From Bdellovibrionales bacterium (GTDB lineage Bacteria; Bdellovibrionota; Bdellovibrionia; Bdellovibrionales; JAMPXM01), in contig JAYUEN010000453.1 in assembly GCA_043739185.1 (NCBI GenBank), positions 1 through 10,577 on the forward strand: a stretch of DNA of 10,577 nucleotides. The letters run 5' to 3'. The notes beneath the pieces are model-generated. The model made no database searches. It was not told where the DNA came from and was given only the letters and a program-made list of their open reading frames with translations. How positions within the stretch are numbered: the stretch's first letter is position 1; each line of letters starts with the position of its first letter. Shown here in pieces: positions 3,492-10,413 of the stretch. The translations under genes and the position numbers were made by a program.

Positions 3492-4970
3492 ATGAATAAA
3501 ATTACTTTAACCAATATTTCGCTCACCTTAATCCTAGCTTTCGGACTCTTTTCTTGTTCGAAAGAAAAAGCCGGTCCGGTAATGGACAGTTTTCATGTCG
3601 ATACGCCCGTGGTCTTAGCTCGCTTCAAAGTGCAATCTGGGCCTGGCCTAACAGAGCCACTCAAAATGAATCTCGATTCCAAAATGAAGGAGACACTTTA
3701 TCCATCGAGTGTGGTTGAAATTGAAGCTTTAAAAAATAATGATTTTGTTACAAATCCAATTTCACTCAATGTCATAGGGAACTGTCAAACGGGGTCAGCC
3801 ATTTACAATCTCCGAAAGATATTTTCAAATATAAAAAGTTTTCAACTCATCAGCTTATTTGATTTTAATATGGTTGTAGAGAATTCTCGTTCAAACTTAA
3901 CCAGTACTTGTTCGATGAATTTTGAATTTATTAATAAAAATGGTTCTACCGAAGTTTTTCGGTTCAAAGACATTCCAATCGGACCACTCATGAAAGAAGA
4001 TGTTGCGAATATCAATTTGGTTTCACATGACGAGCAGGGCGCGGAGTTTGATTCTCGACTTCCGATAGTTGGGGAGAATCGAAATGCCGGCGTGAAGTAT
4101 CCGCTGACTACCCAAACTCAAATAATTTTAAATTCACCTGCGGAGCCTCAATTAATGCTCGTCTGTGAGAATTTTATCAGTCAATTGAGCAGTAAGAAAC
4201 AAACCTATTATGCGTTATCGCAATTTGATTCTGCACGCCTTATTAAATTTAAAAACCTCTCTTCTTCATTCGGTGAAACAGATCCTCGAATAGCCATACC
4301 TGCTCAAGATTGTCGGATAATGACTGAATCAGCTGGGCCCGATTATCAACTGAAGTATAGTAGGCAATTTCGACTGGTTACAAAAAGCCCTGAATTGAAG
4401 GTTAAATTGAAATCAAATACAAAACTTTTTACGAATATTTCTAAAACGGGGGCCATTCAAGCGGGAAGTTCACCTGAAATTTTTCATATAGAAGTTTTTA
4501 ATCCTACCAATTCACCAATGACAATTGCCTTCGGCCAAATGAAAATGCAAGTGCTTGCAAGCCGTAACCCCGGTCAGAAGGAATATCGAGAAGGTTTCAC
4601 CCAGGATATGAGCATTCAAATTGAAGGGGGGCAATTTATTGGTCAAGATCCCGTTCTCGGAAAAGTCATCACGATATCTGCAATGGCCCATCTCAATGTT
4701 AGTTATTTACTTCCATTTGCAAACACTTGCCGTATTATTCAAATTGATGCTACTAACTTTGTGCCTCTGCCTAACTACGAAGAAATTTGGGCTCATAACC
4801 TTTCAAATTTAAGCATTATTCAGCTGGCGAATCCGGTGATCGATAACCTCACTTTTCATCCTGAATATTACAAAGTTTTTTATCAAACTGAAGAAGGGGC
4901 CATACCCGGAGCTAGTTGGACTACAGAAATCGGAAGTGGTTTGAATTGCGAAAACTTTCACTCTCAATAG
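3492..4970 (+). CDS. Large hypothetical lipoprotein (492 aa), apparently beta-rich with 6 Cys in the mature region besides the lipidated Cys
   Basis: Long ORF, GGAGGT RBS, basic N-terminus, hydrophobic stretch and lipobox LFS-C22. No recognisable catalytic motif. Confidence 0.8.
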   Translation: MNKITLTNISLTLILAFGLFSCSKEKAGPVMDSFHVDTPVVLARFKVQSGPGLTEPLKMNLDSKMKETLYPSSVVEIEALKNNDFVTNPISLNVIGNCQTGSAIYNLRKIFSNIKSFQLISLFDFNMVVENSRSNLTSTCSMNFEFINKNGSTEVFRFKDIPIGPLMKEDVANINLVSHDEQGAEFDSRLPIVGENRNAGVKYPLTTQTQIILNSPAEPQLMLVCENFISQLSSKKQTYYALSQFDSARLIKFKNLSSSFGETDPRIAIPAQDCRIMTESAGPDYQLKYSRQFRLVTKSPELKVKLKSNTKLFTNISKTGAIQAGSSPEIFHIEVFNPTNSPMTIAFGQMKMQVLASRNPGQKEYREGFTQDMSIQIEGGQFIGQDPVLGKVITISAMAHLNVSYLLPFANTCRIIQIDATNFVPLPNYEEIWAHNLSNLSIIQLANPVIDNLTFHPEYYKVFYQTEEGAIPGASWTTEIGSGLNCENFHSQ

Positions 4971-5072
4971 AGTCATCAAGCAAGTAGTAATTTTCGAAAG
5001 GTTTTCACTTGAAGGTGTGGGATTCTTATTTCCCATTGAAGTTTTTTGAATAAGATAAGTTGGGAGAGACAT

Positions 5073-5250
5073 TAGACCTCTTGCATATTAATCATGAGAT
5101 AAAATGAAGGAATCCGCTTCAGATCAAGGATTGAAAGTAAAAAAAGGCGAAGGATACAGAAAATGTATTTTGAGTCTTATTTTTGCCTGAAGACGCGGAG
5201 CTGGAGCGGATTACAAGGCTTTAGCCACGATTTAATATGCAAGAGGTTTA
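5073..5250. repeat. ~178-bp nested-palindromic element / MITE-like repeat, copy 1
   Basis: Terminal inverted repeats TAGACCTCTTGCATATTAA ... TTAATATGCAAGAGGTTTA, internal inverted repeats AATCCGCTTCAG/CTGGAGCGGATT and a central hairpin. About 90% identical to the reverse complement of 9381-9559. Confidence 0.92.
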
Positions 5251-5563
5251 TTGGTGCAAATTGGGGTCTCGCCCCAGAAGAGTCAGGTTCTTTGTTAGTG
5301 TAAACCCCTTCGTCAAATATCTAGCTGAAGTAAAATAGCATTTATTAAGGTCAGGTTGAAATTCGGCTAAATATAGATCGTCGTGATTTTGAACCAATTT
5401 GCTTTTTTGAAAGTAAATTTCAAAATTGAAAAGTTAAACTTACTTTGAAGCGCAGCCAAGTTGGCTTATAATTCAAACAGATTTTGGAACTGGCAGATTG
5501 CCTTTTTTTACTAGCCGCAAAGAACTTAGTCTCTCAATTTGAAAAAATATGTGATCAAAAAAA

Positions 5564-6174: not shown

Positions 6175-6912
6175 ATGCTGTCAAGCACGAAGGCAAACTT
6201 AAGAAGGCGTCTAAGATTTTACGCGCATTTATTTAACGCAATTTTGCTTACTTCAGGCATTGCCTTGGCGGGAACCAAAGAAAAAGCCTTTTCACAATTT
6301 CCTCCCGAGCCCCTCAAATTTATTCGTGACAAAAAAGATTTAAAGCTCCTTTTGCAAGAAGAGCCCTCGGCTCAAGATATGCCGTTTTGGCGAAGTAAAA
6401 AAAACATTCACCGCAAGATGCTCGAAGAACGCTTGATCCCAGTATCTGTGAACCAATCTAAACTATCCGGAGGACTCATTGCCTTTGATGTTAAAGGGGC
6501 AGGCATAGTTCATTCGGCGCGAGAAGGTGCTTTTAAGACAGCTCAAGAATACGCAAAATTAACGCAAGTAAGCTCGCATTTTAAGAGTGCTTACTATGAT
6601 GAGAAAAATAAACAGCTGTTCTTGGCGGTTGAAGCTTTGGGCTATGAGACTCGAATGATCTTGGCAATCGATCTGGTTGCTCAGAAAAAGCGAAGTGAAA
6701 TTCAGTTCGAAGTGGTCTGGGGTGAGCTTAAAGGAATGACCGGAGCCATTGGCTTTGAGAATTTAAATGACGAGAGCTGTGAGGTATCGATTTTGTCTCA
6801 CTATCAGGCGACACAGTTTCCGCTGCCTAAGATTTTCATGGGCTTTGCATTTGAAGTACTCACCCAAAAGGTGGCCGAAAAAATGCGTAGTTTTATTGAG
6901 AGTGAGAGATAG
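6175..6912 (+). CDS. Hypothetical exported protein, possible START/SRPBCC-like fold
   Basis: ~245-aa ORF with a basic N-region and hydrophobic segment ending in IALA (signal-peptide-like). C-terminal pattern IQFEVVWGELKGMTG...LPKIFMGFAFEVLTQKVAEKMRSFIE resembles SRPBCC domains. Start codon uncertain. Confidence 0.6.
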   Translation: MLSSTKANLRRRLRFYAHLFNAILLTSGIALAGTKEKAFSQFPPEPLKFIRDKKDLKLLLQEEPSAQDMPFWRSKKNIHRKMLEERLIPVSVNQSKLSGGLIAFDVKGAGIVHSAREGAFKTAQEYAKLTQVSSHFKSAYYDEKNKQLFLAVEALGYETRMILAIDLVAQKKRSEIQFEVVWGELKGMTGAIGFENLNDESCEVSILSHYQATQFPLPKIFMGFAFEVLTQKVAEKMRSFIESER

Positions 6913-7016
6913 GTACGTTTTATTTGGTCGAAGACGATAGTATGATGTTTGCAGACTCAGATCTGAAAACAGATTGAGCGGACGCGAAGTTCAGTCTAGA
7001 AAGTGAATAATTGTGG

Positions 7017-7043
7017 CCGAATACTTCCGAATATGTTTGAATA
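7017..7043 (+). promoter_or_regulatory. Three GAATA-core direct repeats at exact 10-bp spacing upstream of the kinase-SLT operon (possible operator)
   Basis: CCGAATA (7017-7023), CCGAATA (7027-7033), TTGAATA (7037-7043). Confidence 0.35.
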
Positions 7044-7088
7044 TCTCTAAATTGAGTTGAGCTCTTAAGATTGGCATAGGTTTGTTCT

Positions 7089-7673
7089 ATGGATCTAATT
7101 AAAAAAGTAGAGCGATTTATAATTACTGGGGAAACAGTCGGTGATCAAAAAGAGGGTCTTTGGTTTTGTGAAGATCGTGGTCAGGTAAAGGGACGCTTGC
7201 CCCATTGGTTCAAATTACTTGAGGCTTGGACCCGAGATAATAATCAAGCATCACTAATTTCAGCAATTTTAGGTGAATTAGCAAACAATAGTTTTGATCA
7301 TAATCTTGGGAAATGGAAGGACACTCCTGGATGTATGATCGGGCTATCAATTCAATCAAAGGTAATACTCTTGGTAGCTGCCGATCGCGGCCAAGGAATT
7401 ATTTCTTCACTTGGCAAGCAATTGCCCGAAAAGACAACTCCTAAAGAAGTAATGAGAGTGGCGTTTGAAGAGAGAATTTCTGGCCGCGCTCCTGAACAGC
7501 GAGGAAATGGTCTCAAATTTATAAGGGAAGAAATGGATGGGCAGCATCATCGACTGTTTTGTCTTTCTGCTAATACAATTTATCAGAAAGGTGAATTGTC
7601 TTTTGACCTAAACTTAAAGGCTTTAAAGAAAGCGCCAGGAACTTTATCAGTCATTGAATGGAGCTTGTTATGA
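7089..7673 (+). CDS. Stand-alone GHKL/HATPase_c protein, RsbW/SpoIIAB-like putative Ser kinase (194 aa)
   Basis: N-box GELANNSFDH, G1 ADRGQGI, G2 RGNGL and C-terminal PGT strand. No TM segment, no evident HisKA H-box. Directly upstream of a STAS-like domain. Confidence 0.85.
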   Translation: MDLIKKVERFIITGETVGDQKEGLWFCEDRGQVKGRLPHWFKLLEAWTRDNNQASLISAILGELANNSFDHNLGKWKDTPGCMIGLSIQSKVILLVAADRGQGIISSLGKQLPEKTTPKEVMRVAFEERISGRAPEQRGNGLKFIREEMDGQHHRLFCLSANTIYQKGELSFDLNLKALKKAPGTLSVIEWSLL

Positions 7674-8728
7674 AGTTTGCCCAAAAGACCTCCAAGAGGA
7701 TCATTAAAAAGGCCGCCAAAGTGAAAGCCAAAAAGAGCATACTGAAAATCGCAAAATATGGCCAATTTTTATCATCACGTCCGGAAGGTCGAGAAGCGGC
7801 CCTAGCGGCATGGGCATATCACGAAAATTTGAAAAAGAGTTCGACGGTCAAATTCGATTTCACGGGGATTATTGTGATGACGCCTTCGTGGTTGTCTGAA
7901 TTTGTAAATACACTTAGGGACTGTGGTATAAAAAAAATTGAATATCTGACGGAACAAAATCTTTCAGTTCGGCGATCAATTCAAGCTGTTCTTGCGGACG
8001 ATCAAAATCATAAAGTTCATCCGTGGCGTTTGTGTCCCACAGGTCAGCACTGGGTCCGGAAACACCCCCTTCGCGTGGCACCCAGTAAGAAACATCCCGA
8101 CGGTGAAGTCACGATCAGAAATGGCCATTGTGCAAGTAATCCGTCAGGTAAAGATCAACTATATCCGGACGAGATTAAGCAAATTTCCTCATCATTTTTT
8201 TCAAACTTGAGCAATGTTCCATGCCCAAGTAAGCTTGGGTTTGAGGATGGTGCAAAGTTTGATTCTTTAATCGCAGGTTGGGTGCAATACTGGAATGAGG
8301 TACTTATTCCAAAAGAATTTCTCGATCCAAATCTAGTAAAGGCACTTATCGCATCTGAGTCGAGCTTTAATGCAATTAAACTCGCAAGCAAAAAAGATTC
8401 AAATAGCGCCCGCGGATTAATGCAAATTTTAAACAAAACTCGAAAAATTATTGCGGATGAGTCAGGTGAGTTGAAAAATCATTACGTAACCGCAAACAAA
8501 AAGGATTTAGACGATCCAAATGTTAATATTTGTGCGGGCGTTCGTTGGCTTTTTAGAAAAAAAGATTTAGCTTCTTTAAAATTAAAGCGACCAGCTACTT
8601 GGGTTGAAGCTGCTGAAGAATATAAAGGTGATCTTAAGGGAATAATCAAAAAAGACAAGAAGTCCGTAAAGGATGTTGAACCATTTCTAAAACTTTTGAA
8701 GGAGCTTCAGGAATGCGCGAAAAAATAG
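7670..8728 (+). CDS. Fusion protein: Lys-rich tail + STAS-like (DUF4325-type) domain + Cys/His motif + lytic transglycosylase (SLT, GH23-like) domain
   Basis: YGQFLSSRPEGREA...VKFDFTGIIVMTPSWLSEFV (DUF4325-like), HPWRLCPTGQHWVRKH...GHC, then LDPNLVKALIASESSFN (catalytic Glu 8357-8359), ARGLMQI and LDDPNVNICAGVRWL (SLT motifs). Start set to ATG 7670 because of GGAG at 7660-7663 and the ATGA overlap with the upstream stop. Confidence 0.85.
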   Translation: MKFAQKTSKRIIKKAAKVKAKKSILKIAKYGQFLSSRPEGREAALAAWAYHENLKKSSTVKFDFTGIIVMTPSWLSEFVNTLRDCGIKKIEYLTEQNLSVRRSIQAVLADDQNHKVHPWRLCPTGQHWVRKHPLRVAPSKKHPDGEVTIRNGHCASNPSGKDQLYPDEIKQISSSFFSNLSNVPCPSKLGFEDGAKFDSLIAGWVQYWNEVLIPKEFLDPNLVKALIASESSFNAIKLASKKDSNSARGLMQILNKTRKIIADESGELKNHYVTANKKDLDDPNVNICAGVRWLFRKKDLASLKLKRPATWVEAAEEYKGDLKGIIKKDKKSVKDVEPFLKLLKELQECAKK

Positions 8729-9369
8729 AGCTTTTTAGGAATATATTTTTCTTAGCAATTTCGGCGATGATTTCAATAGCGAGTGCGAATTCTACACATC
8801 TTAATAAAATTAAATCTATTTATCCCTATGGTCTCATTGGTGATGATTTCGGGATTTTGAATTGGGAGGATTTGGCAGTCAATACCTGCTTTGCCTCAAT
8901 GACACCATTTTCTGAAGATAAAAGTATGGCCTATTCTTATTGGCAATGCTTCTTAAAGGCGGACGTAAAAGTAGAATGTGAGAGTTTGGGCTATGAACCC
9001 AGCGTAAAAATGGAATTGGCTTATTTTAATATTAATGTAAAAAACAAAATAGAAAACAATTTAGAAAAGAATTTGGGATTTAAAACTGGAGAGAGAGTTG
9101 CCGAGCAGTCTTACCTTGCCCGAGATCCGATGGATATTCGCTCTTGTAAAGAACTCTTAAAGAGTTACAAAAGAAAAACTCAAATACAAAAGTACGTTTG
9201 CATTTCAGGTTCTTTTAATAGCTTGGAATTACTTGAAAATGGCCAAAGGGAAGTCAATTGGGTTTTTGACAAGTTCAAAAACAAGAAGGGATGCGAAGCT
9301 TATAAAAGTGAATGTGAGTTAGAAGTTCCCTATAAAAAAAGCTGCATTGTTCCGAAAACCAAATTTTAA
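8713..9369 (+). CDS. Hypothetical exported Cys-rich protein (218 aa), candidate SLT inhibitor/immunity or partner
   Basis: Sec-type signal peptide (MREKIELFRNIFFLAISAMISIASA|N), 8 Cys, GGAG at 8701-8704, 16-bp overlap with the SLT gene. The function is inference. Confidence 0.75.
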   Translation: MREKIELFRNIFFLAISAMISIASANSTHLNKIKSIYPYGLIGDDFGILNWEDLAVNTCFASMTPFSEDKSMAYSYWQCFLKADVKVECESLGYEPSVKMELAYFNINVKNKIENNLEKNLGFKTGERVAEQSYLARDPMDIRSCKELLKSYKRKTQIQKYVCISGSFNSLELLENGQREVNWVFDKFKNKKGCEAYKSECELEVPYKKSCIVPKTKF

Positions 9370-9380
9370 AATGAGTTTAA

Positions 9381-9559
9381 TAGACCTCTTGCATATTAAG
9401 TCGCGGCCAAAGCCTTGTAATCCGCTCCATCCCTGCGTCTTCAGGTAAAAATAAGACTCAAAATACATTTTATGTATTCTTCGCCTTATTTTTACCTTCA
9501 ACCCTTGATATGGAGCGGATTCCTTCATTTTATCTCGCGATTAATATGCAAGACGTCTA
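9381..9559. repeat. ~179-bp nested-palindromic element / MITE-like repeat, copy 2 (inverted relative to copy 1)
   Basis: TAGACCTCTTGCATATTAA ... TTAATATGCAAGACGTCTA termini, AATCCGCTCCAT/ATGGAGCGGATT inner stem, AGGTAAAAATAAG/CTTATTTTTACCT central stem. Confidence 0.92.
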
Positions 9560-9674
9560 ATAGTTTCAAGTTTTTTAAACTTCATAAGGTGAAAACTAAG
9601 CAAGCCCAATCAAAAAGCTAGCTGGGGCCTAAGGCTCTGATTTAGTTATCTTTTAAGCCCAACCGAAGATTCTG

Positions 9675-9703
9675 TTGCAATTGTATATACTTGTATATAC
9701 AAT
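9675..9703 (+). promoter_or_regulatory. Sigma70 promoter overlapped by a tandem/palindromic operator
   Basis: TTGCAA (9675-9680), 17-bp spacer, TACAAT (9698-9703). TTGTATATAC occurs twice in tandem (9681-9700) and TTGTATATACAA (9691-9702) is a perfect palindrome. Confidence 0.75.
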
Positions 9704-9710
9704 ACAAGAT

Positions 9711-10184
9711 ATGCTGATTTATGAGTTGATTGATCATTTTGACCGAGCGAAGCTTAAATATGCAATTGTCGGAGGCTATGCGCTTGCCCTACATGGTCTG
9801 GTGCGGGCGACGATGGATGTTGATTTTGTTTTGTTTTTAAAGCTTGAGGATTATGAGTTAGCTGAAAAAACTTTGTTAAAAATGGGTCTTCAATCTCGTC
9901 TTCCGATTCGAGCACAAGAAGTTTTTAAAATGCGAAAAGAGTATATTGAAAAGAGAAATTTGATTGCGTGGTCTTTTGTAGACTTTAAGGATCCTTCTAA
10001 GCAAGTTGATATTTTGATAAACAAAGATTTAAAGGACCTAAAAACTGAAAAAATTTCAGTGGGCGGTCGAAAAATTTCAGTTGTGAGCTTACGGCAATTA
10101 TTGCAAATGAAAATTGAGACTGGCCGGCCTCAGGATTTGATCGACATTGAAAACATAAAGGCTAAATTAAATGAAAAAAACTAA
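9711..10184 (+). CDS. Pol-beta-superfamily nucleotidyltransferase (DUF6036/AbiEii-like small NTase, 157 aa)
   Basis: YAIVGGYALALHGLVRATMDVDF (GG...RxTxDxD) and MKIETGRPQDLIDI (K...R.xD..D). Start set to ATG 9711 because the track's TTG 9675 is the -35 box. Confidence 0.85.
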   Translation: MLIYELIDHFDRAKLKYAIVGGYALALHGLVRATMDVDFVLFLKLEDYELAEKTLLKMGLQSRLPIRAQEVFKMRKEYIEKRNLIAWSFVDFKDPSKQVDILINKDLKDLKTEKISVGGRKISVVSLRQLLQMKIETGRPQDLIDIENIKAKLNEKN

Positions 10185-10413
10185 ATCTGGCGAGAGTATT
10201 GTGACGCCAAGAATTTCTCCGTCCGATGCACTACGCTTTCTTGAAGATATGAGGTTGTTAACAACTGAAATCGATCGGCCGAGAGTGTCGATTAGTTTGA
10301 GGGTTCCGGCAAATTTACTTAATGCTTTAAAAACTAAAGCTAAGTCTGAGGGTAAAAAATATCAATCAATGATGCTTGAGATACTGCGCAAATCGCTTCG
10401 CGAAAGCTTATGA
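10171..10413 (+). CDS. CopG/BrnA-like ribbon-helix-helix protein, putative antitoxin/autorepressor (80 aa)
   Basis: C-terminal ISLRVPANLLNALKTKAKSEGKKYQSMMLEILR matches the CopG/BrnA antitoxin RHH pattern (ISLR...K..A...G..YQ). 14-bp overlap with the NTase gene. Confidence 0.85.
   Translation: MKKTKSGESIVTPRISPSDALRFLEDMRLLTTEIDRPRVSISLRVPANLLNALKTKAKSEGKKYQSMMLEILRKSLRESL

Follow-up and report, generated by a model that had tools for sequence, protein, structure and literature searches.

A probable composite locus of a kinase-STAS operon and a hairpin-transglycosylase cassette in a Bdellovibrionales bacterium

RsbW-RsbV and SpoIIAB-SpoIIAA are partner switches made of a Bergerat-fold kinase and a STAS partner. 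In the CapK/CapS and VapK/VapS/VapC systems, according to the available parts of their description, the kinase phosphorylates a Ser of the STAS protein and so releases a repressor or a PIN toxin (PMC13373217). The same excerpts give CapK the architecture helix-turn-helix (HTH)-STAS-GHKL, make CapS a DNA-binding repressor with a STAS and a winged HTH (wHTH) domain, and describe the STAS domain of CapK and VapK as forming a predicted groove that senses single-stranded DNA (ssDNA) (PMC13373217). The PIN.4 family is coupled to DUF4325 genes in the part of another study available to us (PMC5499597). Here we describe a three-gene locus on contig JAYUEN010000453.1 (10,577 nt; assembly GCA_043739185.1) of a Bdellovibrionales bacterium with a genome size of 4.85 Mb. 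This contig was analysed whole and is called the window. The open reading frames (ORFs) of the locus encode a GHKL kinase-like protein (ORF1), a fusion of STAS, beta-hairpin and SLT domains (ORF2) and a predicted exported partner (ORF3). On balance we consider it probable that the locus is composite, in which the last gene of a kinase-STAS operon has received an in-frame hairpin-SLT and partner cassette of the kind that also docks onto many toxin-antitoxin (TA) operons in Bdellovibrionota.

An earlier note, made from the sequence of the window, had taken the three genes for a dedicated unit. The trio does recur in other DNA, with STAS-SLT fusions in the window, in four relatives of its lineage (P0002-P0005), in P0026 and in L162. 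To sample the kinase, we took the best 80 of 565 confirmed metagenome loci and 37 others from the window's phylum. A STAS gene followed the kinase in 77 of the 80 and 34 of the 37, and the loci lacking it were mostly contig ends or truncated kinases. The stand-alone STAS protein is about 90 aa long; among 101 other complete STAS frames, 99 ended within 25 aa, one (L119) had an unrelated extension and one (L162) was fused to SLT. In a genome of the same genus, G003, the pair lies at the same site in the order pgsA-SRPBCC-kinase-STAS, with 70% and 79% identity and no SLT, and it ends at the fusion junction. Across the phylum the pair occupies many different sites. These counts do not support a dedicated trio. 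Judged from these neighbourhoods, the kinase-STAS pair is a widespread and autonomous unit of two genes, of a kind related to CapK/CapS and VapK/VapS. The STAS/DUF4325 protein of L119 (4505-5071) bears a 97-aa non-SLT C-terminal extension, a possible other output fusion.

The best 120 of 670 ORF2 homologs, with lengths of 193-616 only, were classed by architecture. Most (105) were stand-alone enzymes with a short basic tail, the net charge of which was at least +3 in 96 of 102; six, the window included, were fused to STAS and nine had other N-terminal domains. Among these nine were fusions to AbiEii (P0007, P0008), to a DUF6036 nucleotidyltransferase (P0027, P0049, P0062) and to HEPN (P0108), and three of the nine were judged nucleotidyltransferase-like by eye. 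Further fusions were found to HEPN at L268-L270 and to MNT at L030 and L263; the regions L257-L276 were picked for long frames or weak scores and are not a random sample. A direct wiring of STAS to a muramidase, as the earlier note had it, is not supported by an SLT that is stand-alone in 105 of 120 homologs and fuses to at least three other TA domain types. The hairpin profile matched 88 of 251 phylum genomes. At the level of the order the cassette was found in 49 of 301 genomes, with a patchy, multi-copy distribution. No SLT relatives were found in IMG/VR contigs, in 50,697 phage records or in plasmids, and the hairpin alone matched plasmids and phages no better than E 0.2-0.6. By this distribution, hairpin-SLT plus partner is a patchy autonomous cassette of Bdellovibrionota. 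It also decays often: SLTs are split at L049, L063 and L245, and at L257 (1262-2479) the front half of a damaged SLT runs in frame into partner-like sequence.

The cassette was further linked to TA operons. For 58 other unique SLT loci, every ORF within 1.3 kb upstream was compared with Pfam (E<=0.001); the 58 include three loci with less than 820 nt of upstream DNA. The controls were 35 windows from these loci, placed at a distance of 3.5-4.8 kb, and 13 of their ORFs, each over about 500 aa, were left out. A TA family lay upstream or was fused in 27 of the 58 loci and in 1 of the 35 controls (Fisher p 4e-6, a value overstated by genome kinship), and two more small operons in control windows were TA-like by eye. 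The families were RelE/ParE, Phd, BrnT/BrnA, HicA/B, Fic/Doc, AbiE, zeta, HigB, MazE and MNT/HEPN. The TA gene was on the SLT strand in 22 of the 27 and ended less than 200 nt from the hairpin in 14. Since the hairpin-SLT stands directly behind TA genes in such loci elsewhere, the kinase-STAS pair here fills the slot of TA operons.

Several single loci added detail to this neighbourhood. At L062, L066 and L214 a tRNA-Leu(TAG) after gcvT-gcvH bears differing cargo (TA and SLT cassettes in two genomes, and kinase-STAS, a lipoprotein partner and an SLT remnant in the third) and is a likely integration hot spot. At L011, L012, L059 and L195 a zeta-toxin-like ATPase precedes an SLT with a helical N-terminal extension of about 55 aa, maybe a fused antitoxin; L010 has a related extension and lacks the ATPase. 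At L009, L014, L053 and L249, AAA_14 + DUF4143 ATPase genes directly adjoin the cassette.

The history of the fusion was followed in two trees, both from quick searches. The kinase+STAS tree (43 rows, three pairings inferred from contigs of equal length) grouped the window with three more fused pairs at 100% support, with the unfused pair of G003 nested inside and L162 in the other half, and a single fused clade was rejected in the approximately unbiased test (p-AU 3e-8). In the SLT tree (71 rows) the seven STAS-fused SLTs required at least three changes, and the window's nearest group mixed STAS-fused, AbiEii, MNT-like and stand-alone forms. As far as these trees tell, the STAS-SLT fusion had at least two origins and one loss, in G003; fusion is recurrent and lasting, and not specific to STAS.

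Table 1. Coordinates of the features of the three-gene locus in the window
Feature	Position	Strand	Details
ORF1, GHKL (RsbW/SpoIIAB-type) kinase-like protein	7089-7673	+	194 aa
Kinase motifs			N box E63-N66-N67; G1 box D99-G101-G103; G2 region S131-L142; from alignment
ORF2, STAS-hairpin-SLT fusion	7670-8728	+	352 aa, counted from ATG 7670
Lys-rich N-terminal extension of ORF2	7670-7738	+	Window copy only; insertion of ~66 nt relative to G003
STAS-like DUF4325 domain	7739-8005	+	Invariant Ser73 in T-P-S-W
Fusion junction	8006-8017	+	Similarity to G003 stops at 8008, the G003 STAS stop codon
His/Cys-containing beta-hairpin domain	8018-8149	+	Strand-break-strand, turn, strand-break-strand; from modelled secondary structure and conservation
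Lytic-transglycosylase (GH23/SLT) domain	8201-8728	+	Glu230 (8357-8359), GLMQ motif, no signal peptide
ORF3, predicted exported partner	8713-9369	+	218 aa; likely Sec signal peptide (~residues 1-25), hydrophobic N-terminus, 8 Cys, OB-like barrel

As listed in Table 1, the genes lie on one strand. ORF1 and ORF2 share ATGA at 7670-7673, ORF2 and ORF3 share 16 bp at 8713-8728, and GGAG motifs stand ahead of ORF2 (7660-7663) and ORF3 (8701-8704). Three overlapping same-strand genes had been claimed in the earlier note and are present as described; the overlaps and GGAG motifs uphold its translational coupling as well. Its domain calls (GHKL, STAS of the DUF4325 type, SLT and an exported Cys-rich partner) likewise stood. 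The locus was also recovered in four runs of one study. In X1 and X2, both possibly the source of the window, single contigs cover 6800-9464 with 0-1 differences, and in X3 and X4 variant letters at 7993, 7994 and 8011 keep the STAS-SLT frame open. These spanning contigs and in-frame variants rule out the junction as an assembly artefact. A promoter scan of 6800-9750 gave 4 sites where 6.9 were expected, none upstream of the kinase, and an Rfam search gave no credible match.

Residues of the N, G1 and G2 boxes of the kinase were invariant in 30 of 30 aligned relatives. ORF1 itself had no Pfam match, and its relatives matched HATPase_c (17 of 30) or HATPase_c_2 (13 of 30) at E<=0.1. The kinase itself carries neither an HTH nor a STAS domain, and the N box at residue 63 leaves no space for STAS. 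Many of its 634 homologs are labelled Patescibacteria, some with an N-terminal HTH. The kinase profile found no relevant match in the PDB, solved kinases included, even at E<=10, and gave a probability of 8% against the histidine kinase of a locus. One viral contig each was found for kinase and STAS.

ORF2 matched DUF4325 below the cut-off (E 0.003), and 44 of 46 family members match this model. Ser73 (codon 7886-7888) was invariant in 46 of 46 aligned members and in 107 of 107 loci covering the position. The top PDB match of the STAS profile was VapS (9z7o), a weak one (E 0.12). In a weak gap-free alignment, with numbering inferred from an 18-residue tag offset, the regulatory Ser48 of VapS falls on Pro72 and Ser73 follows one residue later. 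The Lys-rich extension ahead of the STAS domain is similar to the basic tails that stand-alone SLTs carry.

The hairpin spans residues 117-160 of ORF2, with modelled strands at 126-129, 132-136, 146-150 and 153-156, and found no informative model in Pfam. It also heads HExxH peptidases at L271-L275, five of six of which have a signal-peptide-like N-terminus. These zincin-like enzymes are followed by an exported partner at most of the loci; L271 holds two tandem copies, and one of the peptidases gave a Pfam ATLF row below the cut-off. Motif III of GH23 family 1 usually reads A-Y-N-x-G. The SLT domains studied here have Y/F-K-G in place of Y-N-x-G, and Glu230, GLxQ and Lys319 were kept in 106 of 106 rows. 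ORF2 matched SLT PF01464 above the cut-off (E 7e-9), and the SLT matched Slt at E 4e-4. The ORF2 model (predicted local distance difference test, pLDDT, 94.7) matched the fold of MltF (Z 13.4, root-mean-square deviation (rmsd) 3.0, 139 aligned) and of MltC (Z 12.6). From model and motifs, the SLT is likely a peptidoglycan-cutting enzyme with intact lytic-transglycosylase fold and signature.

An effector followed by an exported partner, the layout proposed in the earlier note, was borne out: a gene overlapped the SLT stop in 52 of the 55 loci with both genes called, and the SLT-downstream genes had a hydrophobic N-terminus in 54 of 54 (crude score, no control). The ORF3 family (486 representatives, no Pfam or NCBIfam match) followed SLT in 33 of 60 loci. 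Among the other partners, a family of lipoproteins shows a distant relation to it (hhalign 58%), and one of 280 aa shows none (hhalign 0.5%). The slot after SLT is shared by at least two unrelated families, in the manner of exchangeable immunity genes. The partner model (pLDDT 90.6) gave weak fold rows, mostly OB folds (best Z 5.4, rmsd 3.8, 96 aligned); none of the known lysozyme-inhibitor folds (Ivy, PliC/MliC, PliG, Tsi3) was listed and no row reached Z 8. An Atlas search gave no usable match for the partner. Complex prediction for the SLT domain and mature partner (score 0.05, mark 0.32) has no bearing either way.

Since the modules occur apart and the cassette often adjoins or is fused to TA genes, it is likely a stress-expressed weapon and shield, not an enzyme purpose-wired to ORF1. 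In such a composite locus, ORF1 would bind and phosphorylate the STAS domain, probably at Ser73, as VapK does with VapS. The cassette would have no dedicated controller and would be expressed from whichever stress-responsive operon lies upstream. Its SLT, having no signal peptide, might reach peptidoglycan by way of the hairpin domain or upon lysis, and the partner would act as its inhibitor in the periplasm of the producer. Fusion to STAS would be tolerated, maybe tethering the enzyme to the kinase, and dispensable for either module; judging by distribution, phosphorylation control of the SLT is not required.

Several observations weigh against the composite reading. One lineage has retained the fusion over a spread of 59-65% identity (35-40% divergence), and this retention together with at least two origins exceeds a one-off accident and may mean function. 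Transcriptional capture is not universal, since 31 of the 58 SLT loci lacked a Pfam TA gene upstream and 5 of the 27 TA genes point in the opposite direction. The count itself comes from kin genomes and same-locus controls with 13 unscanned ORFs. In the weak alignment Pro72, not Ser73, would stand opposite VapS Ser48, and the change to Y-K-G could mean an altered substrate. Type VI secretion system (T6SS) core genes Hcp (PF05638) and VipB (PF05943) were not found in genome G000 (97.65% complete), which leaves the export route unexplained. The SLT cassette further differs from broken-hairpin toxins, which in the accessible portion of their description are usually without immunity genes (PMC12419801).

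With a dedicated phospho-switch, as proposed in the earlier note, the locus would be a wall-enzyme analogue of VapKSC: by holding the fused STAS domain or phosphorylating it, the kinase would control whether the transglycosylase is active, sequestered or released. This reading would draw on the fusions in P0001-P0005, P0026 and L162 with their two or more origins, on the short direct junction, on the intact Ser73 and kinase motifs, and on VapKSC itself as a precedent for a kinase-STAS pair controlling a toxin, so far as the source can be cited (PMC13373217). We nevertheless hold it to be distinctly unlikely, given that STAS stands alone in 99 of the 101 complete loci, that the SLT was lost in G003, that the SLT fuses equally to non-STAS TA domains and that ORF1 has no STAS domain of the kind that shapes the predicted ssDNA-sensing groove of CapK and VapK. 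A broader scheme, rather unlikely in our estimate, would comprise phylum-wide hairpin-delivered wall effectors with exchangeable periplasmic immunity proteins and with TA or kinase-STAS operons as interchangeable triggers; a fused STAS, HEPN or nucleotidyltransferase domain would confine the enzyme to the cytoplasm until triggered, with this locus as a phospho-gated case. The modules may also be neutral neighbours, an explanation that we find unlikely. TA, kinase-STAS and SLT-partner pairs would then share small accessory islets, often at tRNAs, the fusions would be read-through accidents, and the SLT pair would be an ordinary predatory wall-remodelling accessory unlinked to what lies upstream. 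This would suit the tRNA in 16 of the 56 SLT loci scanned (no control), the five divergent TA genes, the broken SLT remnants lying close to kinase-STAS on the other strand at L200 and L210, and the decayed SLTs at L049, L063 and L257. It sits poorly with the 22 same-strand TA genes, 14 of them within 200 nt, with repeated in-frame fusions retaining the catalytic Glu, and with a patchy multi-copy distribution (49 of 301 order genomes) unlike that of a core predation gene.

Mobility was the theme of two further explanations. As a DNA-transfer helper, a VirB1-like transglycosylase would open the wall, the exported OB-fold partner would bind ssDNA, and islet and addiction module would move together. 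In favour of this role, SSB/RPA-type OB folds make up most of the partner's fold rows, the SLT tails are basic, and mobile islets typically feature TA genes and tRNA sites. Against it, the fold scores stay low (Z<=5.4), with OB folds that bind oligosaccharides also among the rows; the cassette had no transfer genes seen next to it and no plasmid match, and an unrelated partner family can occupy the slot. We therefore rate such a role as very unlikely. A phage lysis remnant, that is, an endolysin with an accessory gene, is hardly credible and is disfavoured. The SLT without signal peptide, weak PHROG endolysin/transglycosylase matches (E 1e-3 to 1e-4) and one viral Atlas cluster (at 0.91, with 131 features shared) point that way; against this, no relative was found in IMG/VR contigs or the 50,697 phage records, no holin/spanin-like gene was seen and the loci lie among chromosomal genes. 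The suggestion of anti-phage suicide lysis finds no support here: the window proteins had no PADLOC match, and phage relatives were not found.

Outside the locus, two inverted copies, 90% alike, of an element of about 183 bp with 22-bp terminal inverted repeats lie at 5070-5253 and 9378-9562. It resembles miniature inverted-repeat transposable or repetitive extragenic palindromic elements (MITE/REP-like), had no Rfam match and has five full copies in G000, all intergenic; one partial end lies just upstream of the G003 kinase. As a possible end of the cassette it was rejected, because the five copies stand at unrelated intergenic sites and the element is absent from other SLT loci. A 492-aa probable lipoprotein without Pfam or NCBIfam match (3492-4970) ends just ahead of the first copy. 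Directly after the second lies a TA-like pair (9708-10413) of a DUF6036/AbiEii-like nucleotidyltransferase and a CopG/BrnA-type antitoxin, a second TA-like operon near the cassette.

The two-gene cassette is apparently undescribed and common, being present in about one third of the Bdellovibrionota genomes searched. It combines a signal-peptide-less transglycosylase, a candidate trafficking hairpin and a new exported-partner family, and has repeatedly been appended to TA operons. No description of the SLT cassette or of its TA coupling was found in the literature, most subscription papers being outside the search. If it is a weapon and shield, it would tie TA stress switches to interbacterial killing in predators, provide a new lysozyme-inhibitor family and offer a small protein for the proposed idea of broken-hairpin export. 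For a minimal kinase-STAS pair, the SLT would be a natural output domain.

The enzyme shares with GH23 family-1 members (Slt70, MltC, MltE, MltF) the fold (Z 10.9-13.4), the catalytic Glu-Ser and GLMQ; unlike them it has no signal peptide and has an extra N-terminal hairpin, Y-K-G and a coupled partner gene. RsbW-RsbV and SpoIIAB-SpoIIAA resemble the locus in Bergerat-fold kinase motifs and STAS partner and differ in that none of the nine window ORFs scanned encodes a sigma factor, as the earlier note had stated. With broken-hairpin toxins, as partly described, the cassette has in common a long centrally broken hairpin and a lysozyme-like effector without signal peptide, and also a second effector type (PMC12419801). 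The likeness is one of description only, and the window hairpin is N-terminal, Cys/His-rich and accompanied by a partner gene (PMC12419801, in part). In the same excerpt these toxins are usually without a signal peptide, which the SLT versions match, whereas the HExxH peptidase versions are mostly signal-peptide-like (PMC12419801). Tse3-Tsi3 and Bdellovibrio Bd3459/Bd3460 likewise set a wall-attacking enzyme beside a probable exported protector, the latter pair according to the available part of PMC4686830. In the window the partner is OB-like, not ankyrin as in that partial account (PMC4686830), and no T6SS core genes were found in G000.

Closest are the kinase-STAS systems, compared here from the parts of their description at hand (PMC13373217). 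Like VapKSC, the locus is a three-gene operon whose first two genes encode a GHKL kinase and a STAS protein in which a Ser is conserved. Unlike VapKSC, it has a kinase without STAS domain and no PIN toxin, and its effector is a fused transglycosylase accompanied by an exported partner; the third gene encodes a predicted exported Cys-rich protein, not a PIN/VapC nuclease, and the kinase-STAS pair is usually without any third gene. As in CapK-CapS, a GHKL kinase precedes a STAS domain that is joined to an output domain, with variable cargo downstream (PMC13373217, in part); the 194-aa kinase is GHKL-only, STAS is followed by hairpin-SLT, and neither HTH nor wHTH is present. That the trio is no recognised named system, as first noted, thus holds in that it belongs to neither CapK/CapS nor VapKSC, with the qualification that these two, as far as the source is available, are its closest described relatives (PMC13373217). 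By analogy, the kinase-STAS pair works like the CapK/CapS and VapK/VapS switches while being a member of neither.

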